A stretch of DNA of 64,000 bases from Elusimicrobiota bacterium (GTDB lineage Bacteria; Elusimicrobiota; Elusimicrobia; F11): positions 11,494 to 75,493 of the forward strand of contig PLLH01000118.1 in the NCBI GenBank assembly GCA_003140895.1, written 5' to 3'. The notes under the pieces are model-generated. The model searched no databases. It was not told the DNA's origin and saw nothing but the letters and a program-made list of their open reading frames with translations. The position numbers were made by a program, and so were the translations under genes. This document shows, in pieces, positions 1,420 to 51,876 of the stretch. Position 1 is the stretch's first letter. Every line of letters begins with the position of its first letter.

Positions 1420-4400
1420 TTAAGCGGCTTTTAACGTTTGACTGGTTTCGTCGACGGAGCGTTGAACGTCCGGAGCCCAACGGGCCGAGAGAGCTTTGAG
1501 GAGTTCGTCGATCAAGAGATAAATCGTTTCTTTTTGGAGGAAGATTGAATTGGAGTCGAGGCCGTTCCAATTAAAGGCGGGCGCGTTTTGAGATGAAACG
1601 ATATTCATGGATCCATGCGCCTGAATGATTCGCGCGACGATCGGGAATTGAACCGCGTTTTCTCCGAAATACGTTTCCAATGTTTTGAGGCGCCATTCCC
1701 CCCCTTGCAAGGCGCCTGTTTGGTCCCCGTCCACAACGGAAACAAATGCCGGATTCACCAGCCCCCTTAACCGTTCCGCCAAAGCGTTTGTTTGAGCGAC
1801 CAGCGTTGTTGGCGTATGCGGGTCGAGGCTTTTCACGAGTTCTTCGAGGTGGGCTTCCAGGCTTGGATCGACGAAAATGAGAGTTCCACTGTTTTTCCTG
1901 AGCGGATCGGTTCGAAGAGTTTCCCCCAACCCCAGGTTGATCGGCGTCCCTTTCAGCAAGGACTCAAGCACAATTTGAGTGGGTGACATCGGAACCTTGC
2001 GGTTTGAGTTGTTAACCGCGCCGATTCTGTTCATGCAGGATAGTAGTGGTTTCACCAACAGGAATGATCCTACAGGCGTGAGGATGCCCCAAACTATATT
2101 GATCCCACTGAGCAATTTGGAATAAAGAATAGACAGAGAGCGTGCCAGCGGGTTGTAAACCCAATAGAGAGCGCGAGAAACGGAGGGTCGCGTTTCCACG
2201 CGGACCAATGGGATCTCCGGCAGGGAACTCGAGGCGTTCCAGTCAGGATCGAACAGCTTGTCATAGCTTGAATGCCAGTGGTGGTTGTGTCGCGCCCATT
2301 CAATAATTAAGTTGTCAATTTCTGAATAGTTGAGGTGAGGGCCGCCCTTTTGCGCCAAAAGGTCTCCTATGGCTCGCATATCATCCATGGAAAATGGGCT
2401 CATCCCCGGAAGAGGCTTGCCGGTTAATAAGTCTCGCCCATCCATTAGTCTGCCCGTGAGCAAGAGCACGTGATTGGAAAGATTTACGTGGTCTATAATC
2501 ACCGCACCTAAGCAAGCAAAGATGATTGCGCGCGTGAGGAGAGCTGGTTTGTCCTCGATCCCTTTTCCACTAAGCGCGGCAGATTGAGCCAGATGGATTG
2601 GGTTGTTGTAGTCTTTTGGCAACTGATCGGCATACGCGGCGACGCGATAGCCGTGGTCTCTCAATCCCTCTAATTCAAAAATGTGAGCACCTCCACGGAC
2701 AACGACCAACGCTCCAGAAGGATGTTCCCGCTTGTAGTCATCAATTTGATTCATCAATGCCTGGGCCCGTAATTCCAACATCTTGGCTTGGTCCCTTGAA
2801 AAAGATGCATATTCGTCCATGGCTTGATTTAAATGCCCTTGCCGGAAATGGTCAATGGCCAAGAAGTAATGAATTTCCGACAGGAAGTTGAATCGGACTG
2901 TATCTCCTGTTGGTATTTCTTCCAATGTTTGAATGTCACTTATGTTTTTTAAATGTTCATTCATTCGGGATATAAGCGGATTCTTCGGCTCGGCGGAATT
3001 CGGAGTGCGATTATACCAATCGACATATGCGCTCATTCCGGAGGCATTATTGCTGTCCTCAAGCAGGGCGATAAGATCTGGAAATTCAGCGTGGTCCTTC
3101 CATCTCTCGGCAAAATTAAGAAGGGCGTTAATTTCCGTATCCGTCAGCCCTGACTGACTTTGTTCCGCGCGAAACGACTCTCGATTATTTCGATATCTCG
3201 TTCCAAGAACATTCATATCGCGGTCAAAATCGTTGTAAGGACCTCCCCCACTCTCCTGCAAAACAGCGACTGACAGAGCCCCTCGTTTGCGGGCGTCTTT
3301 AATTGCTTCTTCAACGGAAGAGCTCATATGGTCATAGTCACCCTTTCTCCCGTGAGGTCCCAGTACGTAATAAATAAAGTCATGCTGTGGGTTCTGAATG
3401 AAGTAAGTGAGCGATTTCAGGAGAATAGCGATCACGATTGAAAAAATAACTGAACCCGCAATCCAAAAGCCGAGGGTTGGGTTAAGAAATGTAATGACGG
3501 GCCATGACAGAAGGGCGATGGCGGTTGTTAATTCGAAAACCGTGAACCCGTCGCGGGGGCCGGGCTTTTTGTGTGGCGCTTTCTGAATGAAGTTATCCAC
3601 TTCGTCTGTCAGTTTTTGTTGCCGGTTGTGGCGCTTGCGTTTTTCTTTCACGTCTTTCCCACCCATCCGAAGACTGACAATTGAATAGATGAGAACGAGG
3701 CCGAGCAGAATTCCCATGGTAACAACGGCCACAAGGGAGGCGTAAAAATTCGAAGCCAAACTGACGGGGGACCATCCCTGCTTAAAGTAATTGGTCAACC
3801 CGGCGGAGGCAACGATACTCAAGATAACAATCGTTTTGACGGGCCACGAAAGACTGTAGTCTGCTTTGGCGAACCGGTAGAGGAAATAAAAGAAAACAAA
3901 GGTCACAAACCACAGAATGTTGGTGGCGATGTTGATGGGTCCCATCATCCAGGAATTGGAGAGGGTCCCCACCATCAGAAACGTGGCTAGATAACCAATG
4001 AGGAGCAAGGTGGCGGAGAAGGAGAACGAATCTTTTTTCTGGTAGATGCGATCCAAGGACTTGCCGTGGCTATAGCGGCTGATCACCACTCCTAAGAGCA
4101 AATAGCCCAGGATACACAACGGGATGGAGATGATGAGCGTCAATAGGAAAGCCGGTAAGAGATCATTTCCTGCGACTCCAACGCCCCGGCCCAAATTGAG
4201 ACTCCTCTCAATCTCCCTCATGCTCCGGCCTTGCGCCCATAAATTCTGCCCTTGCGCCAAAATCCCAGTGATGGTTGCCCATAGTAGAAGAAGTTTTGTC
4301 GTTTGTCCGCCCAAGTGGGCGCCATCGGCGGGCGAATCGGCGGTTTCGGAAGGACGAGTGAAAACGACCAGGGTGTCAGCGTCTATTTGTTTATCGCGAT

Positions 4401-7400
4401 CAGCGTAGCCGCTAAAGCCTGGGAGAAAGCCACCGAATTTCCCCATGTGCCCAAAGGACAAAGCCCAGCGACCCTCTTTGCCGGCGAGTTCAGTTTGAAG
4501 CAGGGCCACCATGCGTTTGTCCTCCTCTAGGTTAAAGGAGGCGAGGAGTTCAGCCAATTCAATCCGCGCGGGTTTGCTTCTGGCCCCCTGGCCCTGATCG
4601 GACACGACGATTCGCCCCCCCGGTTTCATCAGCGCGGTCAAAACCCCGACGTCCGCCGGAGTCAACCCGATCGGATTCAATTTGCTCCTTGTTTCAAGAT
4701 GAAGGGTCCCGACGCTCCCCGGTTGAATCAGCGTTGGAAGCTGCGCTATGGGGCCAAAGTGAACCTTGACCTTGTCTTCAACGTCAATGACCAGGGCCGC
4801 TTTTTTAAGAAACCGCGCCCATTCCGGTTTGGTGGTAACAAAAACGACTTTGCGGGAACCCTTTTTGATTTCAGGCAAAGTGAAGAGGCCATGGAAGTTT
4901 GAACCGATGTCCAGATAAAGAGAGGCGGAGTTCCCCGGATTTTCGGCGTCATGAAGAAAAGGAGGAGTCTCCGCGGCATCCCACAATTTGTTCATATCTC
5001 GCCGGAGAAGGAGCGCGTCGCTCGTGGCGCGGTAATCCAACAGTTTGTTGGCGAAGGCCGGGTCGCTTTCGGCCCTGGAAAGAATGGCGGGAAAAACGCT
5101 CGGAATTTTGATATCGGGAGTGGATACCTTCGACACCCTTCCCTTCGTGGCCGCTTTTGCGGCGGCCCGAATTCGCGCCTGAAAAACGGTCTTGGCGTAC
5201 TTTTCAGAGAGCTCCGGTATCGATTCGAGAAGAGAAACGAAGAGATCTGAATAATTATGATCGGGGAAACGCAAGCTGAGATAATAATATTGGCTGGCCA
5301 CATCGGCGAAAGAATATCTCGTGCCAGAAGAGATCCCGCGGAGATCTTCTTCCGGGTCGGAGCGCCTTTCCATGAATTGCCTTTGTACTGATTTCCCCAT
5401 CATTGCCAGTTCGTGCTTGAAGTAGGCGTCTCTTTCTTGGGGGTCGGTGGGAATAGTGGAGGCCAACTCGTCCCATCCCTCCGGCTTTTCCAGGCAATCA
5501 AGAAAGACGTTGTATCGCCCGGCCAGAAACAGAACCAAATTCACCAAGGACTGAATGGTTTCCTTGTCCCTTTTCTTTGGAAAAAGAATGACAGTTTGCA
5601 CCCAATCCAACGCGTCATCCTCGAGAATGATTTTTTCCTCTTGAAGGAGTTTTCCTATTTCGTTCCCGATGTTTTCTGCCCATTGGGGCGGATTTCCTTT
5701 GATCTTTTTTGAAATTTCTTTGAGTTGATTCTTAAACTGAGGGAAATCGCCTTGGGCGCCGTCAATTTGGCGTTTGAATTCTTTAAGTGATAAAGAATTT
5801 TTCTCCGCGGAGTTGCTGTCGCTCAACCCCGGCAAGGCAACAGTCGCCCCCAGCATCAAAATTGACCCAATCCACAGACCCAGAAGCGGACTCATCCAGG
5901 TGATTCCGGCCCACGAAAAGAGGCCCATGGCCACGGTGAGTTCGTTCAACGCAAATCCGTTCCGTGAGCCGGGCTTGTTGGGTCGTTCCGATCTCATTGC
6001 CTTCGATTTATTAGCGTTAGCAAGATCGATACGCGACACCATGGGATAGACGCTCGTCTCAACCCCATCAATCGTTTTCTTTTTCGCATGGGGAGGCTGA
6101 GAAGCGTGCTGGAAACCTTCAGAGAGAAAGAACGGGAGATTTTCAATGGATCTCTCCGGGACGGCAAGGATGATTTTTTCATTATTTACATACCGGGCGG
6201 AGTTCTTAACGTTCTCCATCAGGCGGTGGCCCACGCCCAAGCGTCGGTAGTCCGGGTGAACGCCAATTTCCGCTATGGATTCTTTCCCCTCTCCATATCT
6301 AAACGCCACGGCCCCGATGATGTGTCCGGCAATCGTAGCGACCCGGGTCTCGATCTGGGCGTCATGAGCGGGGGAAAAGACGTCTCTTCCGTTGAACCAG
6401 GGACGATCGCTGCTGAACTCATCCCAGAGTATATCGGCCATATCTGATCCATTTGTTTCCATCATCGGTCTTATATGTAAAAAATCCTGGATCAATTTTT
6501 TACGAAAAGCGGGGTAATCGACAATTTGGGATTGTGTTAACTCAAGCGTCTTGTCGAGCAGGATTTTAGAGATTGAGTCGGTGATAAGCTCTGCTCGTCT
6601 CGGGAGCGCGTCAACGACTTCATAAGCAAGGTCTTCAATCGGAAGACGGGCAATCCGCGCGCGATCCGAGGTTGCGTTAAAGAAGGAGCGGCGTTCATAC
6701 TCATTCGGTTTGGGTCCCCAAAGGGAGGAGCGCTCTTTTCTGATGCCTTGTTCGTCATAGGACCAGTTGGGATGTTCTTTGAAAAATACCAGGCGCTCCA
6801 GAATTTGCCTTAACGAATGCGGGTCGAGATCAGGCCGAAGCGCGAATTTCGTCAATAACGTGAGAGAATTGGGGGTATTTGAACGCGCCAACACGTCTTC
6901 AAAGATTTTCCTTTTCCCTTCCTTGTCGGCGGATCTGAAACGCGTCATTTCCGGCGGTTCGGAGTGCTTTGTTATAGGGGTTCTGTCGCTATAATTCATG
7001 TTGGAAGCGTCAAATATCAGATGAGAGATGAGTGCCCAATAAGGCGAAGCGCCGAGGTAGGGAAGAACGGGATAGAGAGCAAAAATAAAAAGGCGAACAA
7101 GATTGATCCAGCGAAGCGGCGGCCCGCGGATGTCGGAGTTGGGGTGAACCCACTCAAAAACGATGTGAGCGGCAAAGAGCGGAATGAGCCACGCGAGCGC
7201 GGCAAAGATTCCATAATTGTTTGTGAGCCACGCCGCCAATGCCCCTTCCCCCGCCGCCCAGATCAGCGAAGCGGCTGAGATGAGCGTATGGGTTGTTTCC
7301 TCGCTGAACTTGGCTGAGATCCAGTCGTGAATCGCCGGAAGCGTGAGGATGAAGTAGATGAAAGATAAAGGGACTGTCCCTTGAGAACCGGACCCATTGA

Positions 7401-10400
7401 CACGGCCAAGCGTTCGTGTTTGGACGATGGTGATGGTCCAATGGCCAGGCTGCTGCGGGTCGGCTGTTATGACGACTTCGATGTCCCGGGGATTTTTTGC
7501 TTGAGCCTCCGTTTGCTGGCCGATCTCGCAGAGGGACCGGATCAAGCGATTCGCGTCGGGAAGTTTTAAAAATTCCTTCGTAACGGGAATGGTTTTTGTG
7601 CCGCCGGTTTTGGAGAGAACCGAGCAGCGTTTTTTATTTCCCGGAGATTTTTCGACAATCCTGTTGCGCGTCTTATCCCAGATGATCTGGGTTGGAGATC
7701 CGGCAAATCGGTTGTCATCTCCAACCAGCGATTCCCCCAAGCCCTGAACGGCCTCGATCACCAGATGGCTGGGTTCATTCAGGGCCACATCCGAAGTATG
7801 GATGACACATGAAAAATCCGCCGGTAAAGACGGAACAAGCCAGGCCGCCGGGAAAACGGTCGTTTCATTAATCTGATACTTTCGTCTATTCTCGAAGGCC
7901 TCGTCGGTCCAAACCGAGGCCATCACCTTTTTAATGGCGGGCCAGAAGGCGCGCTTTCCAACAATGTGCGGGATGGTGAGATAAATCCCCGCTCCAACAC
8001 CCGGATATTTTTCAAGATCCTGGGCGTTTGTTGAATCTCGGACAAAAGTCCCTTTTTCCCATTGGGGGTGTCCTTCCGCCTGTTCTAGCGTGGTCCAAAA
8101 CCGAGGGGCCAGGGCGTTTGTGTTTAATCCCATTATAAGACGTCTTATTTTTTTAAGTGTTTGAGCAGCCTGGAGTCCTTCGGCTCCGGTGAGTGATTGA
8201 ATCAGTTTTTTGAAATCAGCATAAACTCCGTTTTTCTTTAGAAGGTGGATAAAGGTTCTATAGGGGATTCCCACTCCTTTGGCGAACTCCGGGTGAATAC
8301 GGGGATCGGACAAGCGAGGGGAGTGGAGGGAGAGACGATTGACTTGAGCCGGTTTGTTGCCGACGACATTGGGCCGGACCATCTCGGGATCATTTGGGGC
8401 GAGGAAATAGTTGTCGCCTTCCAGCGTGACGGAGGGCAGTTGAACTTTGATGCGCCGGGGTTTTGAAATCCGGGGAAGATCGGATTTCGTCGCTTTTCGA
8501 ATGGAGGCGGACCGGTTTGTCACAGTGAGCACAACCATCTGGCCGTCGAGAGACCTTAGTAATTCCGGCCCGGGCCAAACGGCGAGAGGAATATTGTCGG
8601 CCAGAGCGCGCGCCCGGGCGTGTGAGGTTTTTCCCTCATTGATAAAAGTGACGATGCCGTTAAAACGGCCTTCGATATCGACGTAAGACTTTGGCAGAAA
8701 CTTCATGGCCACGATAGAGTTGCTTGGAACCCTCTTCAGGGCGGAAAGGGAAGGCTCTTCCCCCTTTATAATTTGAAGCTTCCCAACTCCTGTACCGGCG
8801 AATTCGGGGGTTGGTTTTTTAACCCGCTGGGGAGCGTAAGAGGTCGGTTGAGCGAATATTTGTGAAGCCTGTTTCCCCTCTGGTTGGAGTTTTTTTGAGA
8901 GGGTATTGATCTCCTCCATTGTTTCCCGCAATTTTTCTGCATAATCATTTGGGCAGTAGCGTTTCTGTAAAAAATCAGCTATTTGTTCGCCGAGTTTCGT
9001 TAAGAGAGTTTCATCGTCTATGGCCGAAAGAATTATTTTGCTGTTGTTTGGGTTAAGATAGCCGAATAAACCGGCAATCCCGCTTAAATTGTACTGAACC
9101 AGGTAGGTGTCTCCCTTAAATGTCATGGGCGCGTTTCTATTTTTGAGAGCCAATCCGCGTTTCACAATTGCGCCGAACAAGTCCATCTCCATCTTCCCGG
9201 ACTGAACTGTCGATTCCCATCGTTCGTGATTTCCCTTGACGCAGGCGAGGATCGTCGCCGCCAGATCCGGGTACCAGTAATATATGGCCCGCAAGGTGTT
9301 GGCGGCCGAGTCAAAAACGGGGTGATTGAGAATAAAAATATCGCCGATGCCCTGGATACTGTTTCCTTCTTTTGAGAATGGGAGAGTAGACTCGAAAATG
9401 TGCTCAACTAATTCTTTCTCGTAGTCCGGCTTTGGCCATTTTGGATTCCAATGTTTCGGGCCGGTTTTTTTCGGATTTGAAAGGGAAAGCTCCGTGCGGC
9501 CAAGATTGGCGAGCAATAGAATTTGGAAGAACTTCCTTAGCGTTTGGAGAACAGCGGGCGGCGCGCGGCCTGGGTAGTTTTCCCCCCACTGAACCAGCCC
9601 GTCGTTGGTGTAGTGGGCGAGAACAAGAAGGACGCTGGCGATCGAAAGTGGAAGCCATGGGTTCCAATCAATGGCGAGGCCGAGAACGCTCAAAATCCCG
9701 AAGGAGATGAAAAACACCTTTCGGAGCTGGTTGACGGCCGCGGCGCGGTTCTGAGAAATTAACTTTAATTCCTCAGCACTTAGCGTTTCCCGCTCCCCTC
9801 GCGTCACGGTATGAAGCCAGACGAAAAATGATTTATTGACCCACAAGCCGAGGATGAACAGAGAAGTTGACGCGACGGCGACAAGAACAGATGACAGTAA
9901 CGATAGAGACGTGGGGCCATAAACGCCGAGTGACCAAAGTAACCCCGTAAGAGGAAGGCCCAGTGGGATCACGCCGAAGACAAGGGACTCCAGGCCCGCC
10001 AGATAGTGGCGGTAGGGCCCCCATTTGAACAGGCTGAGTTCGCTCTCCGGCATCGACGTTGCCGATAGTTGGGCCATGACCGCGGCATGCTTAGCCTTAG
10101 TGATGGCCTGCTGGCGGTCGGCGAAATTGTCGAGCAGCGCTTGTTCTCCCATGAGTGTTGGGTGGGCCGCCACTTCTTCAAGAAGGGTATCAATCGACTC
10201 TGGGATGGCCGTCTCCCTTAAAATCTCAAGGATGGATTCGCCCATGCTTTTGTCATCAATCATCTCAGCCATAAAGCCTATACCCTGTACACCAGCCGTA
10301 TTCCCAATATGGTGATCGACAAGAGGAGGCCTTTCAAAGACGACTTTCCCTGCTCTCACTCGTTCTGTGGCGTAGGACATCATTGCATTGAGATCGTCGG

Positions 10401-13400
10401 TGATTGCTTTGGCTCTGGGAAAAACCCGCTTTACGCCAGCCAAATCCCCTTTGATGGCGGATAAGCGTGTTTCCTTAATTATCTCGCGCAGTTCTCTCAA
10501 ATAGGGAATCATCAAAGAGAAGAATTCGGCAGAATCTGCGATTACCTCATCTGGAACCACTCGTTTTTGAGGAGTCTCATCTTCCTGGTTCCCCCAATGA
10601 GGAAAGATGGGTTGGTAAGCGTGGAATCGTTGGGTTTTAAGAAGACGGTTCAGAACCCGCGACGTGTTCATCCACAGCAGCCAGCGGTGAATAGATCCAA
10701 GCCCTTTATCTTTCTCTTCAATCTTATTCCAATCAATAAGAACGTCGAGCAGGGGAATGTTTTGGCCTCCGATCTCGATTTGAGCGTCCTTATGAATATC
10801 CTCCAAAAGCTTGCTTAGGATTTCGATCAGTTTTGTGTTGGGATCGACACCCGGGTCGCGGACATATCTGTTGTAGAGGGCTCGTCTTTCTGAGGGCGTC
10901 CACTGCGTCCAACCACTCTTGAAGTTCTGCCTTCGGTTTGGTGGGAAGAACAGAAGAAGGATGAAGTCGTTTATGATTTCTCGGATCCTAACCGTTATTG
11001 GATCGGCGGGATGATCCCCCTCAAGGACGTGTATGGTTTCTTCCAGGAGTGACTTGTGCCAGTACTTGTAGTGGGGATCGACGATGACGATCCTTTTCGC
11101 ATCGGGATCAATACCGAGCGCCTCAAGAACTTGCCGTGGGGAAACATCCAATCTTTGCGCGATCACTTGAAGGTGGTCGTTGGTCAAATGGGTTCCCCAC
11201 GCGTGGGTCTTTCTCTTCCAGCCCTCATTTTCAATCGGGGAGTGCGTCCCGCCCCCGACGAATTTGCCGATGTAGAAAAGTTGATCCTCGGATCCCCAAG
11301 GCATCAATAATCCGTAGGCTGGATCGCCGACCTGAGGAAAAAGAACGGCCACCCCTTCGTTTTGCAGAATCCGGTGGAGGTCCTCGGCTGGGGGTAATCC
11401 CGGGATGGGAGAGCTTAAGGAGATTTCCCTTTGTTGTCGCCGGCTTTTCTCATTTTTCTTGTCCAACAAAGTGTCCCCTTTAGAATCGGTACGGGTGCCT
11501 TTCACAACGTATGCGGGATCCTTGACGAGCACGGTCGCGATGGCCTGCTCAAACCCTGTTCTCCGGGCCAGTACCCCCCCGATTTCATAGGCTTTCTTGT
11601 GTTTTTCAGGATCCCTATTTAATAACTCTAAAACCACGTTTGCTAAATACTCACCGTATTCATAACTAAAACCGGGTTCCAATTTAAACCGCCCGGTGAA
11701 CCTCGAAAACCAGCTTTCGTGCCGCTTGGCCAACTTTCGAAACCCCTTCTCCCAGGAGGAAGGCGGAAATTCAGCGATGATTTCACGGACGGTCTTAGCA
11801 CTTGATCCGCCATAGTGGCTGGTTGATATCCCCAATTCAGCGGCTCGTATGGTTCGAAAATAACTGGCCGCAAAAGCGTTCGAGCGGTCTCCCATGGCTA
11901 GGATTGGAAATACAACGTGGGTGAGCTCATGGAAAATATTCGCACGCAAGGAGGACTCATCAGGGAACCGCCACTTGAAAACCAATACTTTTTTACTGAA
12001 GTTCAGCTTGACTCCGTTGGCGCCCCGAAGGGTTTGAACCGTCGCTTTAGCTCCAAACAACAAAGACCAAAAACCAATCATCTTCAAAATCGGGATGAAA
12101 TCCCAGCCGATCAAAGAAAACGGCAGAAAAACGATGGCGAGCGGAACAAACCAGAATAGAAACTGAGGCACAATTAATCTTCGAAAGGCTTGCCACGGAC
12201 TTGAAGCGACTTCAACTGTCCTTCTTAACGGTTTTTCTAATCTCCTCCCTTTTGAACTTTCGGCATCCCCAGGAAAACCCGTCACCTCAATAAAGTGGCC
12301 CACTTCCTCCCGGACTATTCTTTCGTCGGCGGAAATTTGGGACGCCGGGTTCCTTGCGGCCATAACGTGAGCGTCAAATGGCATGTGGAAAGGAAGAGCA
12401 AAGTAGGGTGAGAATCCGAAACGAGGGAAAGCAATATAGAGAGCAAAAATAAAAAGGCGAACGAGATTGATCCATCGGAGCGGCGGCCCGCGGATGTCGG
12501 AGTTGGGGTGAACCCACTCAAAAACGATATGAGCGGCAAAGAGCGGCATGAGCCACGCGAGCGCGGCAAAGATTCCATAATTGTTTGTGAGCCACGCCGC
12601 CAATGCCCCTTCCCCCGCCGCCCAGATCAGCGAAGCGGTTGAGATGAGCGTATGGGTTGTTTCCTCGCTGAATTTGGCTGAGATCCAGTCGTGAATCGAC
12701 GGAAGCGTGAGGATAAGGTAGATGAAAGACAAGGGAGTTGTCCCTTGAGAACCTGACCCATTTATAGACTTGATACGTCTTTCGACTCGCTCCTTGGTTC
12801 CCAGCTTTGTCACGATACCCTTGGATTGTTGATTAATCGTGTTTTCAGGAGGGTGTGAAATATTCTGGCGGAAGGAATTAATTTCCAATATGCGGCTCCG
12901 AATGCGTCTAAACAATTCATCTTTCGAATCGCTTGAAGATAAGGTTTGATGAAGATCGGATCTTAACCGTTCCAGAGCCGGGCCATATTCGTCCTTGCGC
13001 AGTCCGCCACGGGCAATATACCTGGCTCTCATATCATGGAATCGGTTCATCTCCCCCATGAGTCTTTCGATAAAGAGATACCTTTCTACGGGCTTGACAT
13101 AGGGTCGTCTAAAGAATTCCAGCATAGACTCCACTTTATCTTGGACTGTTTCATGGACAAGTTTATGGAACGAGATTAAGATTTCTCTTCCAGATGCGGG
13201 ATGGATAAGCAGAGGTTTTCTGGTTTGGATAAGTGTTCTTTCTTGAACCGTAATCTGAAGATCATTCGTTGCGCTTATTAACTTCTGCTTCAGCCTTTCT
13301 ATGAACTGAAGTTCCAAATCACTGTCCAGAAAATGCGAAAATTGAATATCCAAGTCATCCACCGCTGAGAATGGGACGTAACCCTCTTCATCCTGGAGGT

Positions 13401-15687
13401 AAAATGCGCTCCCATAGGCTTGCGCCAAAACCCGTTGGCCATCGGGAGCCACCATCTCATCGGCGGTTTCCTGAATCATTTTCCGAAGAAACCCGAAATT
13501 GATTTCGTAATTTTTGAATCCCTTCTGTCTCGCAAAAACGGGATTCTTTATCTCAGCCAAGGAAAACCCCGAGAAACTATCGTTATAGAATAGTGACGCG
13601 GAGGTCTCTCTCCCCGATATCCGGCCCGAGCCGGGTCCGACATCGGGTTGGGAAGAATCCCTCATCATCGCCATCCCCACCACAAACGGCGCCATTGAAA
13701 GGAACGCGACTATTTCCTTTGCGTGGATCTTCATCCAATCCCAACCGAGGGCCATCCATTCGGGGTAAAGCAGGCTGACGAGGGCGCTTGTTGTGAGGAG
13801 GGCTGAGAGAGTGAGAGGGGTGCGGATGCTCTTCATCCCCCATTTTTCATCAATGGCAATCGTTAAAGATTTGGATGTGCGATTTGAGAGGGCCGTGATG
13901 TGGATAAGACCCGCTTTGGCGAGGTGGATTGTTGCGCGGGAGGCGATCCTCATTCTTCTTAAAACTTTCTCAACGTATTGTTGCGCGAACGGAATGCCGA
14001 TGACTTGTTTCATGACGCCTCGAGCGGCGAAGAAAAGGCCGGCTTTGGCGAACGCTGGGTTGGACACGGGCTCTTGGGCCAGGAAGAGTTTTTCCCCTTC
14101 GAAGAGCTTTTCAAGCGGGGTTTTCTCCTGAGTGAAGACGCTCAGATAGGTTGCCCCCGTTGATGAGTCCACTTTGGTCACTTTGGGAACAACGGTGATG
14201 GTGGTGAATCCGGCGTCCTGAGCCAGACGGTTGATCCCGCTTGAGTGATAGCCGCCGGTTACAAGAACCGCCACGTTGGTTTTATTCTCCCCCATGGTCC
14301 TTAAAAGGTTATTCGCCATCAAGGTGTCGCGCGCGTCGGCTTCGGAGTAAAATTTTTCAAACGGCGAAAAATTTGGTTGATGGTCTATGGACTGATACTC
14401 TTTCCACTCTTCTTTCGTGAGTCCAAAGTCGAGAAGTTTTCCAACAAGATACAGCCGCCGAGACTCTGCGACATCTTTTTTCTCGTCGTCCGTTCGGATC
14501 AACGACGCGTAGGTCGCGTCTTCTAAGTTGCTGATTTCTTGATGTAGCTTCTCCGCATCAATGGAGTCGGAGAGAAGGACATACTGGAGGTAATCGAACA
14601 TCGCTTTGTAATACGAAAGGTTGACGCCTTGTTTCTCGCACATGGTTTTTAAGGCTTGGTAGAAATCAGCGTGGTTGAGTTGGCCGAGACGGAACGCCAA
14701 CGTCAAATTAACGAGGGGTTGCGTTTGGTCGGCCGGCAGCTTCCTGAGGAGTTCCTCCAAAAGTAGAGAACGCTCCCGTTCAACGCGCGCGAAATCCAGC
14801 GACTTTTCAAGTTGGAGGGCGCGAAGGAAGTTGTTGAAATTGTGCCCGGGCACTTTTTTGTTATTGAACGAATTCAATAACTGCGCGTAGTCACCAAGTG
14901 AGAGGGTCCCCCTTTGGTACGCCTGGACGTTTCGGTCAAACGCTTTTAAATCGGGATTAAACCGGGTTTCTTTTTCTGCCGCCAGCGTTTGTTCAAGTTT
15001 TGCCAGTTTTTCTTTTTGGGTGGCGGTCTGCGGCGCGGATTCGCGGACGGCGTTGACGTTCGCTCCGTAGCGCGCGGCATCATCAATCCCGACGTACGGT
15101 GGCGGGGTGAGTTCGGAGACGAGAGCCGTATGAATCGGGCCTGAAATGGCGTTTTCGGCAAGCAGATGATCGGCTACCTCGCGGATGGTTTCTTTGTGAG
15201 GAAATTCTCTGAGGAGCGAAAGATCGAGCGGGGCGAAGGCTCCTTCGAGAGCCACCAGGTCCACCCGTTGTTTATTGATGAGCGTTTGGATTACGGCGGC
15301 GATGTTTTTCTGGGCTTCCCCATTCATGTGGATGTCTTGAACATGAATGATGATTTTCTGCTGAGAGCGGGACGCGGGCCTTGAAACAGAACGGATGCTC
15401 CCAAATTGAAGCGGGATGGCGCTTAATACATTTTTCAGGGAGAGGTCTTGCACATCTTTTGCCCATTTGTTGAAGTGGACATTCGCGGATAACGTGTCGG
15501 CAAAATTTGTTGGGAGCGAGGAATGGGTGAATCCCGCCACGGCGGGTAAACTCGCCAATTGGACGGATTTTTTTCGTTCCGTCCAGAAATCGGTTTCTGC
15601 TTTGTAGGCGAAGAGACAATTGGTGGAGAGAAGGGCCATGGCCAAGGCCATTGTGAGGCATCTTGAAAAGAAAGACGTATGCTTCAA
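1420..15687 (-). CDS. Giant (4755 aa) mosaic multidomain membrane protein. In order: signal peptide; Tiki/TraB/ChaN-like domain; transmembrane helices; repeated TM module; HExxH motif; phosphohistidine swivel plus PPDK_N nucleotide-binding (dikinase) module; second copy of the TM module; GNAT acetyltransferase domain; further TM clusters; second Tiki/TraB-like domain.
   Basis: A continuous 14,268-nt ORF without stops. TTG start at 15687 follows GGGAGA. N-terminus MKHTSFFSRCLTMALAMALLSTNCLFA is a signal peptide. Motifs seen in the translation: IIIHVQDIHMNGEAQ ... VLVTGGYHSSGINRL (ChaN/TraB-like, residues ~110-510); IFHELTHVVF (HExxH, residue 1253); IVTFINEGKTSHARARALADNIPLAVW (PEP-utilizer swivel, His ~2356); VVGNKPAQVNRL ... 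SVWTDEAFENRRKY ... VIEAVQGLGESLVGDD (PPDK_N, ~2440-2680); IIGAVAFRYGEGKESIAEIGVHPDYRRLGVGHRLM (GNAT, ~3115-3160); ALVVVRGGAHIFELEGL (second TraB-like GGxH motif, ~4330). There are multiple hydrophobic stretches. Confidence 0.8.
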   Translation of the reverse strand: MKHTSFFSRCLTMALAMALLSTNCLFAYKAETDFWTERKKSVQLASLPAVAGFTHSSLPTNFADTLSANVHFNKWAKDVQDLSLKNVLSAIPLQFGSIRSVSRPASRSQQKIIIHVQDIHMNGEAQKNIAAVIQTLINKQRVDLVALEGAFAPLDLSLLREFPHKETIREVADHLLAENAISGPIHTALVSELTPPPYVGIDDAARYGANVNAVRESAPQTATQKEKLAKLEQTLAAEKETRFNPDLKAFDRNVQAYQRGTLSLGDYAQLLNSFNNKKVPGHNFNNFLRALQLEKSLDFARVERERSLLLEELLRKLPADQTQPLVNLTLAFRLGQLNHADFYQALKTMCEKQGVNLSYYKAMFDYLQYVLLSDSIDAEKLHQEISNLEDATYASLIRTDDEKKDVAESRRLYLVGKLLDFGLTKEEWKEYQSIDHQPNFSPFEKFYSEADARDTLMANNLLRTMGENKTNVAVLVTGGYHSSGINRLAQDAGFTTITVVPKVTKVDSSTGATYLSVFTQEKTPLEKLFEGEKLFLAQEPVSNPAFAKAGLFFAARGVMKQVIGIPFAQQYVEKVLRRMRIASRATIHLAKAGLIHITALSNRTSKSLTIAIDEKWGMKSIRTPLTLSALLTTSALVSLLYPEWMALGWDWMKIHAKEIVAFLSMAPFVVGMAMMRDSSQPDVGPGSGRISGRETSASLFYNDSFSGFSLAEIKNPVFARQKGFKNYEINFGFLRKMIQETADEMVAPDGQRVLAQAYGSAFYLQDEEGYVPFSAVDDLDIQFSHFLDSDLELQFIERLKQKLISATNDLQITVQERTLIQTRKPLLIHPASGREILISFHKLVHETVQDKVESMLEFFRRPYVKPVERYLFIERLMGEMNRFHDMRARYIARGGLRKDEYGPALERLRSDLHQTLSSSDSKDELFRRIRSRILEINSFRQNISHPPENTINQQSKGIVTKLGTKERVERRIKSINGSGSQGTTPLSFIYLILTLPSIHDWISAKFSEETTHTLISTASLIWAAGEGALAAWLTNNYGIFAALAWLMPLFAAHIVFEWVHPNSDIRGPPLRWINLVRLFIFALYIAFPRFGFSPYFALPFHMPFDAHVMAARNPASQISADERIVREEVGHFIEVTGFPGDAESSKGRRLEKPLRRTVEVASSPWQAFRRLIVPQFLFWFVPLAIVFLPFSLIGWDFIPILKMIGFWSLLFGAKATVQTLRGANGVKLNFSKKVLVFKWRFPDESSLRANIFHELTHVVFPILAMGDRSNAFAASYFRTIRAAELGISTSHYGGSSAKTVREIIAEFPPSSWEKGFRKLAKRHESWFSRFTGRFKLEPGFSYEYGEYLANVVLELLNRDPEKHKKAYEIGGVLARRTGFEQAIATVLVKDPAYVVKGTRTDSKGDTLLDKKNEKSRRQQREISLSSPIPGLPPAEDLHRILQNEGVAVLFPQVGDPAYGLLMPWGSEDQLFYIGKFVGGGTHSPIENEGWKRKTHAWGTHLTNDHLQVIAQRLDVSPRQVLEALGIDPDAKRIVIVDPHYKYWHKSLLEETIHVLEGDHPADPITVRIREIINDFILLLFFPPNRRQNFKSGWTQWTPSERRALYNRYVRDPGVDPNTKLIEILSKLLEDIHKDAQIEIGGQNIPLLDVLIDWNKIEEKDKGLGSIHRWLLWMNTSRVLNRLLKTQRFHAYQPIFPHWGNQEDETPQKRVVPDEVIADSAEFFSLMIPYLRELREIIKETRLSAIKGDLAGVKRVFPRAKAITDDLNAMMSYATERVRAGKVVFERPPLVDHHIGNTAGVQGIGFMAEMIDDKSMGESILEILRETAIPESIDTLLEEVAAHPTLMGEQALLDNFADRQQAITKAKHAAVMAQLSATSMPESELSLFKWGPYRHYLAGLESLVFGVIPLGLPLTGLLWSLGVYGPTSLSLLSSVLVAVASTSLFILGLWVNKSFFVWLHTVTRGERETLSAEELKLISQNRAAAVNQLRKVFFISFGILSVLGLAIDWNPWLPLSIASVLLVLAHYTNDGLVQWGENYPGRAPPAVLQTLRKFFQILLLANLGRTELSLSNPKKTGPKHWNPKWPKPDYEKELVEHIFESTLPFSKEGNSIQGIGDIFILNHPVFDSAANTLRAIYYWYPDLAATILACVKGNHERWESTVQSGKMEMDLFGAIVKRGLALKNRNAPMTFKGDTYLVQYNLSGIAGLFGYLNPNNSKIILSAIDDETLLTKLGEQIADFLQKRYCPNDYAEKLRETMEEINTLSKKLQPEGKQASQIFAQPTSYAPQRVKKPTPEFAGTGVGKLQIIKGEEPSLSALKRVPSNSIVAMKFLPKSYVDIEGRFNGIVTFINEGKTSHARARALADNIPLAVWPGPELLRSLDGQMVVLTVTNRSASIRKATKSDLPRISKPRRIKVQLPSVTLEGDNYFLAPNDPEMVRPNVVGNKPAQVNRLSLHSPRLSDPRIHPEFAKGVGIPYRTFIHLLKKNGVYADFKKLIQSLTGAEGLQAAQTLKKIRRLIMGLNTNALAPRFWTTLEQAEGHPQWEKGTFVRDSTNAQDLEKYPGVGAGIYLTIPHIVGKRAFWPAIKKVMASVWTDEAFENRRKYQINETTVFPAAWLVPSLPADFSCVIHTSDVALNEPSHLVIEAVQGLGESLVGDDNRFAGSPTQIIWDKTRNRIVEKSPGNKKRCSVLSKTGGTKTIPVTKEFLKLPDANRLIRSLCEIGQQTEAQAKNPRDIEVVITADPQQPGHWTITIVQTRTLGRVNGSGSQGTVPLSFIYFILTLPAIHDWISAKFSEETTHTLISAASLIWAAGEGALAAWLTNNYGIFAALAWLIPLFAAHIVFEWVHPNSDIRGPPLRWINLVRLFIFALYPVLPYLGASPYWALISHLIFDASNMNYSDRTPITKHSEPPEMTRFRSADKEGKRKIFEDVLARSNTPNSLTLLTKFALRPDLDPHSLRQILERLVFFKEHPNWSYDEQGIRKERSSLWGPKPNEYERRSFFNATSDRARIARLPIEDLAYEVVDALPRRAELITDSISKILLDKTLELTQSQIVDYPAFRKKLIQDFLHIRPMMETNGSDMADILWDEFSSDRPWFNGRDVFSPAHDAQIETRVATIAGHIIGAVAFRYGEGKESIAEIGVHPDYRRLGVGHRLMENVKNSARYVNNEKIILAVPERSIENLPFFLSEGFQHASQPPHAKKKTIDGVETSVYPMVSRIDLANANKSKAMRSERPNKPGSRNGFALNELTVAMGLFSWAGITWMSPLLGLWIGSILMLGATVALPGLSDSNSAEKNSLSLKEFKRQIDGAQGDFPQFKNQLKEISKKIKGNPPQWAENIGNEIGKLLQEEKIILEDDALDWVQTVILFPKKRDKETIQSLVNLVLFLAGRYNVFLDCLEKPEGWDELASTIPTDPQERDAYFKHELAMMGKSVQRQFMERRSDPEEDLRGISSGTRYSFADVASQYYYLSLRFPDHNYSDLFVSLLESIPELSEKYAKTVFQARIRAAAKAATKGRVSKVSTPDIKIPSVFPAILSRAESDPAFANKLLDYRATSDALLLRRDMNKLWDAAETPPFLHDAENPGNSASLYLDIGSNFHGLFTLPEIKKGSRKVVFVTTKPEWARFLKKAALVIDVEDKVKVHFGPIAQLPTLIQPGSVGTLHLETRSKLNPIGLTPADVGVLTALMKPGGRIVVSDQGQGARSKPARIELAELLASFNLEEDKRMVALLQTELAGKEGRWALSFGHMGKFGGFLPGFSGYADRDKQIDADTLVVFTRPSETADSPADGAHLGGQTTKLLLLWATITGILAQGQNLWAQGRSMREIERSLNLGRGVGVAGNDLLPAFLLTLIISIPLCILGYLLLGVVISRYSHGKSLDRIYQKKDSFSFSATLLLIGYLATFLMVGTLSNSWMMGPINIATNILWFVTFVFFYFLYRFAKADYSLSWPVKTIVILSIVASAGLTNYFKQGWSPVSLASNFYASLVAVVTMGILLGLVLIYSIVSLRMGGKDVKEKRKRHNRQQKLTDEVDNFIQKAPHKKPGPRDGFTVFELTTAIALLSWPVITFLNPTLGFWIAGSVIFSIVIAILLKSLTYFIQNPQHDFIYYVLGPHGRKGDYDHMSSSVEEAIKDARKRGALSVAVLQESGGGPYNDFDRDMNVLGTRYRNNRESFRAEQSQSGLTDTEINALLNFAERWKDHAEFPDLIALLEDSNNASGMSAYVDWYNRTPNSAEPKNPLISRMNEHLKNISDIQTLEEIPTGDTVRFNFLSEIHYFLAIDHFRQGHLNQAMDEYASFSRDQAKMLELRAQALMNQIDDYKREHPSGALVVVRGGAHIFELEGLRDHGYRVAAYADQLPKDYNNPIHLAQSAALSGKGIEDKPALLTRAIIFACLGAVIIDHVNLSNHVLLLTGRLMDGRDLLTGKPLPGMSPFSMDDMRAIGDLLAQKGGPHLNYSEIDNLIIEWARHNHHWHSSYDKLFDPDWNASSSLPEIPLVRVETRPSVSRALYWVYNPLARSLSILYSKLLSGINIVWGILTPVGSFLLVKPLLSCMNRIGAVNNSNRKVPMSPTQIVLESLLKGTPINLGLGETLRTDPLRKNSGTLIFVDPSLEAHLEELVKSLDPHTPTTLVAQTNALAERLRGLVNPAFVSVVDGDQTGALQGGEWRLKTLETYFGENAVQFPIVARIIQAHGSMNIVSSQNAPAFNWNGLDSNSIFLQKETIYLLIDELLKALSARWAPDVQRSVDETSQTLKAA
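7072..7398 (-). repeat. Copy 2 of the 327-bp intragenic direct repeat (residues 2764-2872). It lies exactly 5364 bp (1788 codons) from copy 1, in the same frame.
   Basis: Near-identical DNA and peptide to 12436..12762. The alternative-frame ORFs 7017..7214 and 12315..12578 (both beginning MESLPRSRGS...) mirror the repeat. Confidence 0.9.
12436..12762 (-). repeat. Copy 1 of a 327-bp intragenic direct repeat (about 95% nucleotide identity) encoding a ~109-aa multi-TM module. It corresponds to residues 976-1084 of the giant protein.
   Basis: The DNA string atagagagcaaaaataaaaaggcgaac...gtcccttgagaacc recurs at 7072. The encoded peptide NGSGSQGTTPLSFIYLILTLPSIHDWISAKFSEETTHTLIS...RWINLVRLFIFALY is nearly identical in both copies. 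Confidence 0.9.
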
Positions 15688-15873
15688 AATGATTTCTCCC
15701 GAAGGAAGGAATAAGCGAAACGATGAATTCGGCTCTTATTAAGGAGAGATTTTACTCGAGGGGTGGTTAAGATCGTCTTAAGAACCTGTAAACAACTAGT
15801 AAATTATATTCCCCTCTTGAAATAACCGCGTTTTTTGTTAGATTTAAGTGTAAGTTCAGCAGAGGAGTCATTC

Positions 15874-16164
15874 ATGTTTCAATTCATTAAAAAAGTAGTG
15901 AATTGGTTCAAAGGGGACGCGGTTCCGCCAGTCCAGGCTGCCGCCGAGACGTCTCGTAAGGTTGCCGAGGCAGCCGCTCAAAAAAGAACCCCGGCTCTCT
16001 CGCCAACGGAAGATGTGTATAGGAAAATTATTGAAGACGCTCGCGTGGGCGATTTTTTGAAAGAACTTCAGTCCATCCCCCCCGCTACAAAGGAATTTGA
16101 AAAGTCCAAAGAAAACATGGTTCAAGAATTAAAGAAACTGAAATCTCCGAAACCCCCTCAATAA
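15874..16164 (+). CDS. Small hypothetical protein (96 aa from the ATG at 15874).
   Basis: ATG preceded by GGAG (agaggagtcattcATG). Lys/Glu-rich with no recognisable motif. The ORF track starts earlier at 15835 but has no RBS there. Confidence 0.4.
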   Translation: MFQFIKKVVNWFKGDAVPPVQAAAETSRKVAEAAAQKRTPALSPTEDVYRKIIEDARVGDFLKELQSIPPATKEFEKSKENMVQELKKLKSPKPPQ

Positions 16165-16527
16165 ATGGCTTCCTCCGACCGCAGAGAATCAAACCGGTTT
16201 CAAACCTCCTTGCCCGTCGAGATTCGTTTCTCCCCGGACGGCGTTCCGATGCAGGGAAAAAGCCTCGACATCGGTCCGAACGGAATGAGGTTGTTGACGC
16301 TTCAGCCGCTGGTGGAAGCCACTCTGATTCACATTTCTTTTCAGAACGCTTCCAACAACACCCACTGCGAAGGGCGCGTGGTGTGGACGCAACGGTCGGA
16401 AGACAACACGGAATTTGAAAGCGGGGTTGATATTCAGCGGTGGGGTGGCGGTGTTCCCGGTTCCGACGTCATCCACGAGATCCCGGATCTAAAACAGAAG
16501 AAAGACCGCCGCAACAAGTCTCGTTAA
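16165..16527 (+). CDS. PilZ domain protein (c-di-GMP binding).
   Basis: RRESNRFQTSLPVEIRF ... GKSLDIGPNGMRL matches the PilZ RxxxR ... (D/N)xSxxG signature. 120 aa. Confidence 0.6.
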   Translation: MASSDRRESNRFQTSLPVEIRFSPDGVPMQGKSLDIGPNGMRLLTLQPLVEATLIHISFQNASNNTHCEGRVVWTQRSEDNTEFESGVDIQRWGGGVPGSDVIHEIPDLKQKKDRRNKSR

Positions 16528-19500: not shown

Positions 19501-19674
19501 TACTTCCGGAGACGCCCCTTCCCATGTGACCTGAACCGAGATGACGGGAAAGTCCACGTCGGGGAGCTGGCTGATGCCGAGGCGCGTAAAGCTCAACCAG
19601 CCGAAAAACATGAGCCCGAACATGAGCATCCAGGCGAAAACGGGATTTTTTATGGAGACGTCAGAGAGTGTCAC
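16546..19674 (-). CDS. RND efflux transporter permease (AcrB/HAE1 family).
   Basis: 1042 aa. N-terminus MTLSDVSIKNPVFAWMLMFGLMFFG is the typical AcrB opening. Two large periplasmic loops and 12 TM helices are evident. Start overlaps the OMF stop by 4 nt. Confidence 0.9.
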   Translation of the reverse strand: MTLSDVSIKNPVFAWMLMFGLMFFGWLSFTRLGISQLPDVDFPVISVQVTWEGASPEVMETEVTDTIEDAVIQVQGVKEISSISRQGQTSISVEFELSRDIDAALQEIQTKIAQAQRNLPKDIDPPIVTKTNPEDQPILWLGLSGNRDLKYLMQYTKDVVKDQFTTVSGVGEVTLGGYLEPNLRVWLDADKMEKNELTVDDVTSAISTEHAELPAGTIDTGRNELNVRVMGEAASVEEFRTLVIPRRSGSPIWKKFHIGDVAQVEDGLEDARRFSRTNGLPGVGIGIKKQRGSNAVDVANRVKERLAQIQKNLPNGIHLDVNFDSTKFIKDSTHELNFNLILSAILTSIVCWLFLGSFSSAFNIILAIPTSILGTFIVLYFLGFTLNTFTLLGLTLVIGIVVDDAIMVLENIVRHKEEGARRVHAALVGAREITFAAMAASIAILAVFIPVVFMSGIVGKYFFQYGVTISVAVMLSLFEALTLTPMRTSQFLETGHTTWIGKQMDHWMKGLANTYRRILNLCLDNRWKVIGISVLMFIASLSLWIPLKKEFVPSQDQSILMLRIQTPVGSSIEFTDDVFKKVEAYLTAQPEVMRYFGSVGGMGGAVVNQGFVFVTLKEPGDRPLRPGAKKRFSQQDFMNQARKDLKQIPGLFRAVTQDLSLAGFTSQRGFPIEFTIRGSDWDKMAGFSQQIMDKMNASGLMVDVDTDYQLGMPEVKVVPNRQKAAERGVSIQAIANAINASIGGIRVGKFTRGGKRYDIRVRFAEQFRQKSSDINKIWVRNNRGEVIRLSEVVGISEKPTLLSISRRNRERAIGVFANVAQGKSQAEAIDAVQKMGKEILPEGYRLVISGSAQTFKDSFTSLFLALALGILVAYMVLGSQFNSFTHPFTVLLALPFSITGAFIALWLGHKSINLYSFIGMILLMGIVKKNSIMLVDFTNERRKKGQPLREALMEACPIRLRPILMTSVSTIAAAIPPVIGMGPGGETRVPMALVVIGGVLVSTLLTLLVVPCVYSLLARFESHKHDADLKEALKELGELPNT

Positions 19675-31308: not shown

Positions 31309-31309
31309 C

Positions 31310-33633: not shown

Positions 33634-33670
33634 TAGTCTATATCCAACGCACTCCTACGGAGGTGCTCCC

Positions 33671-35559: not shown

Positions 35560-35561
35560 TT

Positions 35562-51850: not shown

Positions 51851-51876
51851 GAAAGCCTCTTTACGCCGGACTCGAA

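Follow-up and report, generated by a model that had tools for sequence, protein, structure and literature searches.

How does a bacterium come to encode, in one uninterrupted open reading frame (ORF) of 14.3 kb, a chain of membrane segments and enzyme-like modules that are normally separate proteins, and is such an ORF a single gene? The question is raised by contig PLLH01000118.1 of an Elusimicrobiota bacterium (assembly GCA_003140895.1), from which a stretch of 64,000 nucleotides (nt), here called the window, was analysed. A preliminary description had taken the ORF for a genuine gene whose 4755-amino-acid (aa) product has no recognisable family. This product, the giant protein, comes from a single genuine gene and is probably a multi-pass inner-membrane mosaic protein, and its sequence places it in an undescribed, phylum-wide, multi-copy family of mosaic membrane proteins headed by a TIKI-type domain. 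As judged from alignments and predicted folds, a conserved exported, hydrolase-like head is joined in this family to a highly variable chain of transmembrane (TM) segments and borrowed enzyme domains.

The preliminary description was right that the ORF is uninterrupted, although it did not give the strand, which is the minus strand. At the given base composition, the probability of 4755 codons without a stop by chance is about 1e-83. When 30 sliding segments of 300 codons each were scored with a codon model trained on housekeeping genes of the window, the annotated frame came out best in every one, although its bias was weaker than that of the housekeeping genes (mean log-likelihood ratio 0.119 vs 0.261). 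On these coding statistics and the length of the frame, therefore, the giant ORF is real and coding throughout. Other, public gene callers begin the protein at Met13, giving 4743 aa; this is the deposited form, and an exact database look-up of the TTG-start product found no match. Promoter and terminator scans at both ends of the gene gave nothing above chance. The gene has been seen in metagenome assemblies of peat or permafrost type.

It might be argued that the locus truly holds two or more genes (e.g., of 2294 and 2428 aa) and that faulty sequencing or assembly, or a chimeric joining at a 327-nt repeat, produced the single ORF. This view is very unlikely, but it has a concrete basis. The near-identical, independent ENA contig ERZ19980630 c_634 (99.99% identity over 18.7 kb) carries GG at about position 8782, where the window has GGG; a stop then follows five codons on and two genes are called, of 2294 and 2428 aa. 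In addition, most family members measure only 1,100–3,700 aa, and a 327-nt repeat with 95% identity between its copies does lie inside the gene. On the other hand, the uninterrupted version is found on three metagenome contigs with an identical 4743-aa product, one of them the 169-kb scaffold WOOD18-1_SAMN07125095 scaffold_64 with the same neighbours, and a 412-aa stretch, 99.3% identical, occurs on a short contig of a separate JGI metagenome. Each half is open for more than 2,000 codons, the annotated frame is the best-coding one in every window, and both repeat copies have unique flanks, with the same arrangement in independent assemblies. Moreover, the split falls inside a domain. The second gene call would start at Met2328, within the PEP-utilizers-like domain (aa ~2296–2388), and would remove the first ~30 residues of a domain that aligns from aa 2297 with a paralogous ORF at locus L048. 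This paralogue aligns in frame over aa 2297–2656, across the indel site, which argues that the intact frame is the conserved one. A frameshift splitting the ORF, which the preliminary description had named as evidence against its claim, is thus present in one assembly, but the L048 alignment and the three intact contigs favour the intact frame. The GG version may have arisen by misassembly, or it may be a disabling mutation of very recent date. That a single-base homopolymer difference can halve a gene call is a caution for surveys of giant genes.

The membership of the giant protein in a family rests on its N-terminus, where a signal peptide and a Tiki/ChaN-like domain had been proposed. The signal peptide is plausible, since its shape (..TNCxLA[YH]xxExNFWxERR) is kept across the relatives. 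It was also observed that the Cys of the TNC motif is often conserved at the end of the hydrophobic core (P0001–P0038; window 15604–15687), and this Cys might mark an atypical lipobox instead of a signal peptidase I site. The Tiki/ChaN-like domain was confirmed by fold comparison, by invariant residues and by matches of the family to Pfam. An AlphaFold model of the head made with the family alignment (predicted local distance difference score, pLDDT, 80.6; predicted template-modelling score, pTM, 0.77) has the alpha/beta fold of the TIKI superfamily, with a parallel beta-sheet core flanked by helices, its halves being split by an all-helical insertion of ~240 aa. The residues D118, H120, Q126, E148, R453 and G478-G479-x-H481 are invariant in 34 head sequences. 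The giant protein's own head scores 16.3–18.6 bits on PF04187 (Cofac_haem_bdg), whose cut-off is 27.7, whereas 16 of the 34 family members match this model at E ≤ 0.01 (best 5e-6); the family profile matched nothing among PDB sequences. In the TIKI-family enzyme RRSP, the site reads E3900-x-H3902 ... E3930, and a site of two His and two Glu has been described for RRSP and the Ere enzymes (PMC6254334). The spacing of D118-x-H120 ... E148, with 28 residues from His to Glu, equals that of H3902 and E3930. This invariant pattern of acid-x-His ... Glu ... Arg ... GGxH points to a probable hydrolase function of the head, as a protease or esterase, in the periplasm. The superfamily of TIKI, TraB, ChaN and erythromycin esterase proteins, with structures for ChaN (2G5G), Bcr135/136 (2QGM/2RAD), EreC (6XCQ), HopBA1 (5T09) and RRSP (5W6L), includes both enzymes (Ere, RRSP, Tiki) and a binder (ChaN), and the head is a candidate for either. 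It differs from these proteins in the ~240-aa helical insertion between the halves of the fold and in being fused to a body, thousands of residues long, of TM segments and cytoplasmic-type domains.

Relatives were sought by a word-index search of 5.8 billion proteins, in which the giant protein was entered as three segments, and by a scan of GTDB species-representative genomes with a narrower family alignment of the head. The protein database yielded 33 head relatives, the named ones almost all from Elusimicrobia, together with a distant one (P0029) labelled as an Omnitrophica metagenome-assembled genome (MAG). In the GTDB genomes, 249 stretches encode the head, and the best 80 of them all belong to Elusimicrobia or Elusimicrobiota MAGs. 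Several MAGs carry at least five to eight copies, for example Ca. Obscuribacterium magneticum, F1F2.bin.33 and RA.bin92. Complete ORFs at these loci span 1,127–3,746 aa, and several others, of at least 3,900 aa (the longest at least 3,962), extend beyond the DNA that was fetched; the giant protein is longer than all the complete ones, and its larger relatives are P0043–P0045. The absence of a recognisable family is therefore true of curated libraries, since nothing in Pfam, NCBIfam, PADLOC or the PDB covers the whole protein, but not of the N-terminal ~550 aa, which define a large, uncurated paralogous family with 249 genomic matches, many of them in ORFs of 2,000 to at least 3,900 aa. No publication describing an Elusimicrobia family with a TIKI head was found.

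Behind the head, the family diverges. Only two modules of the giant protein's body recur among 75 relative ORFs, the body segments outside the head retrieved from the 5.8 billion proteins only the giant protein itself, and no close orthologue with the full architecture turned up when GTDB genomes and JGI metagenomes were scanned with the single protein. The search for co-linear homologues suggested in the preliminary description thus gave partial relatives but no full orthologue. P0038 (3279 aa) has three modules of the giant protein in the same order, namely the head, a 6-TM module with a pilin-like motif and the C-terminal stretch, and P0044 and P0045 have the head and a second domain in common with it. 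The cargo carried behind the same head includes TPR, CheY, HATPase_c, sigma70_r4, NUDIX, ARMT1, NAGPA and M23 domains; further cargo comprises HEAT, hexokinase, class-V aminotransferase, GATase, low-molecular-weight phosphatase (LMWPc), DnaJ, GH18, PRTase, GNAT, and PPDK_N with PEP-utilizers. In P0038 there are five sigma70_r4 repeats, NUDIX and adenylate kinase (ADK), and in P0045 (7376 aa) Peptidase_A8 and glycogen phosphorylase domains. Two observations concern the surroundings of these relatives. The gene of P0045 (L083, 393–30155) is followed without any gap by a 2543-aa ORF with a Glu/Leu/Phe/Val dehydrogenase domain, and a stop or frameshift may have split what was a single, still larger gene. 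The gene of P0038 adjoins three tandem tyrosine-recombinase genes and a Y2 transposase gene (L084, 2860–6478 and 20276–20632), so that mobile or rearranging DNA may harbour some members of the family.

The body of the giant protein contains two enzyme modules that could be assigned with confidence. The ATP-binding dikinase module that had been reported was confirmed by the PPDK_N model (PF01326; E 1.9e-20, 73.8 bits vs a cut-off of 27), and its PDB matches are entries of rifampin phosphotransferase and phosphoenolpyruvate (PEP) synthase. The His swivel reported with it spans nearly the whole PF00391 profile (positions 2–67 of 72), but its score is below threshold (E 0.01, 15.8 bits vs 23.1); the swivel and PPDK_N unit is kept in the L048 paralogue at 32% identity, its His included. 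The GNAT acetyltransferase exceeded the curated cut-offs of three Pfam models (PF13508, 35.1 bits vs 27; PF00583, 31.1 vs 20.7; PF13673, 30.1 vs 23.6), with PDB matches to YpeA. In potato glucan, water dikinase (GWD; StGWD1), an upstream domain is followed by the His domain and then by the ATP-binding domain (PMC13553574). The giant protein has the same order, with a region in the acceptor position, then the swivel and then the ATP-grasp domain (PMC13553574), which is not the order of PEP synthase (PPS), pyruvate phosphate dikinase (PPDK) or rifampin phosphotransferase (RPH). Pfam and NCBIfam scans of the giant protein found no acceptor domain, whether a PEP/pyruvate TIM barrel, CBM45 with the central domain, or a rifampin-binding domain, and the NCBIfam models for PPS, RPH and PigC match it over the ATP-grasp part only, far below their cut-offs. 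Since an acceptor domain is not recognisable, the unit is best read from these profiles as a dikinase-like module and not as an orthologue of PPS, PPDK, GWD or RPH. Another difference from the dikinases with a swivelling His (GWD, PEP synthase, PPDK, rifampin phosphotransferase and PigC/RedH) is that the unit is embedded between TM bundles.

Taken together, these parts suggest an array of enzyme modules that is stapled to the membrane and preceded by a periplasmic hydrolase head, a picture to which we assign a probability of about one half. The head would be exported to the periplasm and be hydrolytic there. One anchoring TM region would follow it, and most of the remaining chain would run along the cytoplasmic side, fastened to the membrane by TM hairpins and bundles of even helix number with both ends cytoplasmic. 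The PPDK_N and GNAT modules would thus be positioned where ATP and acetyl-CoA are available; ATP might phosphorylate His2356, and the swivel might then deliver the phosphate, in the manner of GWD, to an acceptor that the preceding region binds. Since paralogues keep the head and exchange the body, the family would behave as a membrane scaffold for shuffled enzyme and regulatory domains. The topology was derived from hydropathy and positive-inside charges only. The counts of Lys and Arg (4 before and 8 after the 6-TM module, 4 before each pilin-like hairpin, and 3 and 3 around the hairpin at aa 1170–1213) appear to fit clusters of even helix number with both ends cytoplasmic. Several points weigh against this picture. 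The hydropathy scan is crude, and a miscount by one helix would move the enzyme modules across the membrane; the head's own Pfam match and the swivel domain both lie below curated cut-offs; the gene is split in one assembly; for about 70% of the protein (~3,300 aa) neither a homologue nor a domain could be detected, so that major functions may have escaped notice; and "scaffold" describes an architecture, not a mechanism. The preliminary description thought of a self-contained machine, possibly one for modifying a polymer or membrane substrate; this is a possible reading, although paralogues with such different cargo speak against a single dedicated pathway.

PrgY and Tiki, both of the TIKI family, have secreted signalling peptides or proteins as their targets. 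By analogy, the periplasmic head of the giant protein could sense or process a ligand, such as a peptide, while the cytoplasmic body transduces or executes the response. We regard such a signalling or regulatory role as quite unlikely. Relatives with the same head do carry a CheY receiver, HATPase_c, five sigma-70 region-4 repeats, a LuxR-type helix-turn-helix or a low-molecular-weight phosphatase, and a PilZ gene, encoding a protein of the cyclic di-GMP receptor type, lies divergently upstream of the giant gene. However, Pfam and NCBIfam recognise no signalling domain in the giant protein, many relatives have purely metabolic-type domains (hexokinase, aminotransferase, GATase), and PilZ proximity recurs at one other locus only, at a distance of 5.8 kb.

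A further question is whether the chain acts whole or in pieces, and it is raised by two internal segments of the giant protein (aa 3229–3265 and 4032–4068). Both contain a basic leader, Gly at -1, Phe at +1, Glu at +5, ~21 hydrophobic residues and Pro at +23; each lies at a module boundary, right behind a basic stretch, and the two TM hairpins that they begin are homologous (44% identical). P0038 carries the same motif at the equivalent place (aa ~3095, segment ~3085–3120). The class III signal of type IV pilins is a hydrophilic leader ending in Gly, followed by ~21 hydrophobic residues with Glu5 (PMC4471445), and the internal segments have this leader, Gly, hydrophobic stretch and Glu5, along with Phe+1. 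They differ from pilins in being internal and in continuing into a second helix, which makes each a hairpin. The N_methyl and TIGR02532 models gave no match to the giant protein at E ≤ 1, and the segments lie more than 3,200 residues from its N-terminus.

It is conceivable from this that the giant protein is a polyprotein, inserted in the membrane as one chain and then cut into separate proteins by a prepilin-peptidase-type enzyme at G/FxxxE (the slash marking the cut), by its own protease-like modules (the TIKI head, the HExxH module and a second TIKI-like domain), or by both. The products downstream of a cut would then begin like type IV (pseudo)pilins. This possibility is judged unlikely, though a fair number of observations speak for it. 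The two segments and the P0038 site agree with the class III definition (PMC4471445), while the ~203,000 residues of the family contain the strict motif nowhere else; the 6-TM module also has stand-alone homologues, and these stop exactly before the motif; protease-like modules are present in cis, and P0045 embeds a Peptidase_A8 domain. Processing has also been proposed for giant proteins of Omnitrophota, whose loci have genes with class III signals (bioRxiv 10.1101/2023.11.21.568195). Class III signals, however, are N-terminal by definition, and both pilin models failed to match at E ≤ 1. We know of no precedent for internal processing by PilD. The second hydrophobic helix after each motif forms a hairpin, unlike the case in pilins, no prepilin peptidase or type II secretion/type IV pilus (T2SS/T4P) gene occurs among the window ORFs scanned, and the three motif copies are mutually homologous, hence effectively one conserved element. 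More doubtful still, and very much an outside chance, is a largely Elusimicrobia-specific system in which a giant membrane polyprotein would be cut at internal class III signals and/or by the TIKI and HExxH modules, releasing pilin-like membrane-anchored enzymes. If the polyprotein reading were true, such cutting would be a new way to make and co-localise envelope proteins, and it would offer a mechanistic handle on whether bacterial giant proteins act whole or in pieces.

Among described proteins, the nearest whole-protein analogue of the giant protein is the Archaeovorins. These are TM-rich giant proteins of Omnitrophota, in which PPDK_N, GNAT, NUDIX, HEAT, TPR and HATPase_c are among the commonest domains (bioRxiv 10.1101/2023.11.21.568195). 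They are largely unannotatable and possibly processed, with class III signal genes nearby, and their defining features are a length of at least 30,000 aa, an origin in Omnitrophota, divergent SecA-DEAD/preprotein-binding domains and an adjacent T2SS/T4P-like locus (bioRxiv 10.1101/2023.11.21.568195). No TIKI, ChaN or TraB head is mentioned for them (West-Roberts et al., bioRxiv 10.1101/2023.11.21.568195). Like them, the giant protein interleaves TM segments with normally cytoplasmic modules, is mostly unannotated, has an ambiguous topology and may be processed by proteolysis. Unlike them, it has 4.8 kaa, relatives in Elusimicrobia, no SecA-DEAD/preprotein-binding domain and no secretion locus, so that the many TM segments are the only one of their criteria that it shares; and its family, multi-copy and paralogous, is defined by a TIKI-fold head. 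That the giant protein cannot be assigned to a described family must accordingly be qualified: a comparable TM-rich class is known in Omnitrophota, but the giant protein lacks the features that define it.

The likeness nevertheless allows the reading of an Archaeovorin-like surface weapon or attachment machine, with soluble modules mostly extracellular and acting on the envelope of a prey or host or on environmental polymers, and we consider this very unlikely. The repertoires overlap (many TM helices, PPDK_N, GNAT, NUDIX, HEAT, TPR, HATPase_c and enzymes of sugar metabolism), domains directed at cell-wall or glycan substrates (GH18, M23 peptidase or NAGPA) are present in some relatives, and the distant head homologue P0029 comes from an Omnitrophica MAG. 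But the giant protein has no SecA-DEAD domain (no SecA match at E ≤ 1) and no dockerin, adhesin-repeat or glycosyltransferase domain; it reaches about one sixth of the 30,000-aa threshold; and no T2SS/T4P-like locus adjoins its gene or those of P0043, P0044 or P0045. Modules dependent on ATP and acetyl-CoA would be useless extracellularly, and nothing in the evidence examined points to predatory Elusimicrobia. A direct link to Archaeovorins through the larger relatives was considered as well and rejected, P0043–P0045 having neither SecA-DEAD domains nor a T2SS context. Another comparison is with MARTX-type multi-effector and polymorphic proteins, which also join a conserved N-terminus to variable enzyme-like modules, with several paralogues per genome and possible autoprocessing. 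MARTX toxins carry the TIKI-family RRSP as cargo, whereas in the giant protein the TIKI fold is the conserved head. The giant protein has no RTX repeats, cysteine protease domain, Rhs/PAAR or toxin/immunity features, and the TM segments that thread its body are ill-suited to a secreted toxin.

The membrane-stapled array proposed here is thus a variant of the recently recognised TM-rich mosaic giant proteins, set apart by its membership in a multi-copy TIKI-headed family that is itself undescribed. Such proteins with housekeeping domains have so far been found mainly in Omnitrophota, and the giant locus represents another lineage of them with a different organisation, in which the TIKI-fold head is conserved and apparently competent for catalysis while the bodies are freely shuffled. 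That uncultured bacteria encode large mosaic proteins has ceased to be a surprise, and for this one a function can be proposed from the sequence only. On the other hand, at ~1–5 kaa the family members have a size at which heterologous expression, topology mapping and proteomics are feasible; the family, absent from Pfam, NCBIfam and PADLOC, could be defined as new, with one new domain model each for the head and the second domain; and the internal prepilin-like motifs and the GWD-ordered dikinase unit lead to concrete hypotheses, the motif possibly bearing on how giant proteins are processed.

The preliminary account of the giant protein as an intact, membrane-embedded mosaic of normally separate modules is supported by the TIKI/ChaN head, the dikinase unit, the GNAT domain, the TM repeat and the HExxH motif (Table 1), although its reading of single modules needs some revision. 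The duplicated 109-aa TM module is encoded by a 327-nt in-frame duplication with 311 of 327 nt identical, sharp borders and faint similarity beyond them, and this high identity and the borders indicate that the repeat arose by recent intragenic duplication or gene conversion. The HExxH motif is present as noted, and its module is 31–37% identical to a paralogue at locus L063, which shares with it an IFHELTHxVFP block and ~170 residues more. The module could be matched to no Pfam or PDB family, also when a profile was compared with the PDB, and no third ligand was identified. The cluster of ten or more TM helices stands as a membrane cluster but not in its count, being better described as a 6-TM module with a 2-TM hairpin; a stand-alone 6-TM protein (P0040) matches the Yip1-like PF04893 at E 6e-5, below cut-off. 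A class-I methyltransferase-like stretch (aa ~3590–3760) was rejected: aa 3290–3600 and 3600–3840 have no Pfam match at E ≤ 10, and LDIGSNFHG lacks the GxGxG of motif I. Segment-wise Pfam searches at E ≤ 10 likewise gave nothing for aa 556–970, 1100–1890, 2890–3090, 3290–3840 and 4420–4755. The absence of non-ribosomal peptide synthetase/polyketide synthase, RHS, toxin and adhesin-repeat motifs is consistent with the Pfam, NCBIfam and PADLOC scans, and PADLOC found no defence-system match.

The second TraB-like domain of the preliminary description is a distinct case. An alpha/beta domain near the C-terminus is common to proteins of 1263, 3127, 5930 and 7376 aa, with a conserved GxH...E...R...GGxH pattern. 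Its model reaches a pLDDT of 79.2, and Foldseek against the PDB gave nothing significant. The head profile did not detect this domain by hmmsearch, and hhalign of the head against it gave a probability of 3.8–5.5%. A TIKI-like nature of the second domain is possible from its motif pattern.

Table 1. Features of the giant gene and its product, with residues in the protein and positions in the window.
Feature	Residues (aa)	Window position	Strand	Remarks
Giant ORF		1420–15687	minus	4755 codons plus stop; TTG start; alternative start at Met13 gives 4743 aa
Shine-Dalgarno-like GGGAGA		15695–15700	minus	7 nt 5' of the TTG start; read off the sequence
Signal-peptide-like N-terminus (..TNCLFA/YK..), then conserved ETxFWxERR	1–28	15604–15687	minus	Family conservation; putative export signal
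TIKI/ChaN-fold head	29–556	14020–15603	minus	Helical insertion of ~240 aa
First hydrophobic anchor segment(s) behind head	623–676	13660–13821	minus	Hydropathy; relatives also have TM at ~600–700
Duplicated 109-aa multi-TM module, copy 1	976–1084	12436–12762	minus	Repeat comparison
TM hairpin, then HExxH module	1166–1389	11521–12192	minus	H1253-E-L-T-H1257 at 11917–11931
About 4 TM helices	1895–2028	9604–10005	minus	Hydropathy; weakly similar to P0003
Phospho-histidine swivel (PEP-utilizers-like)	2296–2388	8524–8802	minus	Candidate catalytic His2356 (T-S-H) at 8620–8622
1-nt indel		8782	minus	GGG in window, GG in ENA contig ERZ19980630 c_634; codon ~2302
PPDK_N ATP-grasp nucleotide-binding domain	2468–2762	7402–8286	minus	
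Duplicated 109-aa TM module, copy 2	2764–2872	7072–7398	minus	Directly behind PPDK_N; repeat comparison
GNAT acetyltransferase (RimI/YpeA-like)	3083–3197	6097–6441	minus	
TM hairpin 1, prepilin-like start (..KPGSRNG/FALNE..)	3238–3289	5821–5976	minus	Motif at aa 3244, window 5941–5958
6-TM module	3800–4044	3556–4290	minus	Also as stand-alone proteins of 218–275 aa
TM hairpin 2, prepilin-like start (..KKPGPRDG/FTVFE..)	4041–4099	3391–3567	minus	Motif at aa 4047, window 3532–3549
Second alpha/beta domain with helical insert	4098–4500	2188–3396	minus	G-x-H4112 ... E ... R ... G-G-x-H4335
C-terminal stretch	4578–4673	1669–1956	minus	31% identity with P0038 C-terminus

The genomic context of the giant gene is that of an ordinary chromosome. 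Upstream on the same strand lie OEP and AcrB genes, followed by carAB, purA and a HAD hydrolase gene. The genes of the outer-membrane factor OEP and of the AcrB-type resistance-nodulation-division (RND) pump (window 16546–21005, minus strand) adjoin without a membrane-fusion (adaptor) gene between or beside them, and carB is directly next. Between AcrB and the giant gene, and divergent from the latter, are a small ORF (~96–109 aa) and the 120-aa PilZ gene (window 15835–16527, plus strand); only one other MAG (L036) has a PilZ gene, 53% identical, near a family member, which it precedes by ~5.8 kb. Downstream of the giant gene are a 4Fe-4S protein and a hydrogenase cluster of the Mbh/Ech type. 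When the synteny of the Fer4, small-ORF, PilZ, AcrB, OEP and 940-aa-ORF genes was compared with 80 family loci, this one PilZ match was the result and no conserved neighbourhood emerged. A search for T2SS/T4P or prepilin peptidase genes found none among the window ORFs scanned. The 940-aa ORF (window 27684–30506, plus strand) has no Pfam match; its product begins with a TM or signal segment, continues with a Pro/Ala-rich linker and another TM segment, and ends in a large soluble region. It is followed by genes of the futalosine route to menaquinone (window 30466–36764, plus strand), encoding a UbiA prenyltransferase, a UbiX-like flavoprotein, UbiD, two radical-SAM proteins of the CofH/MqnC type and VitK2_biosynth. 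Another cluster is a Bat/MoxR operon (window 44626–52863, minus strand) with a MoxR AAA_3 ATPase, DUF58, BatA-VWA, VWA-TPR, BatD and TPR-SH3 proteins, upstream of which a 714-aa SH3-domain protein is encoded on the other strand. Finally, an extracytoplasmic function (ECF) sigma/anti-sigma pair, ispH and a TonB-dependent receptor gene lie further off in the window.

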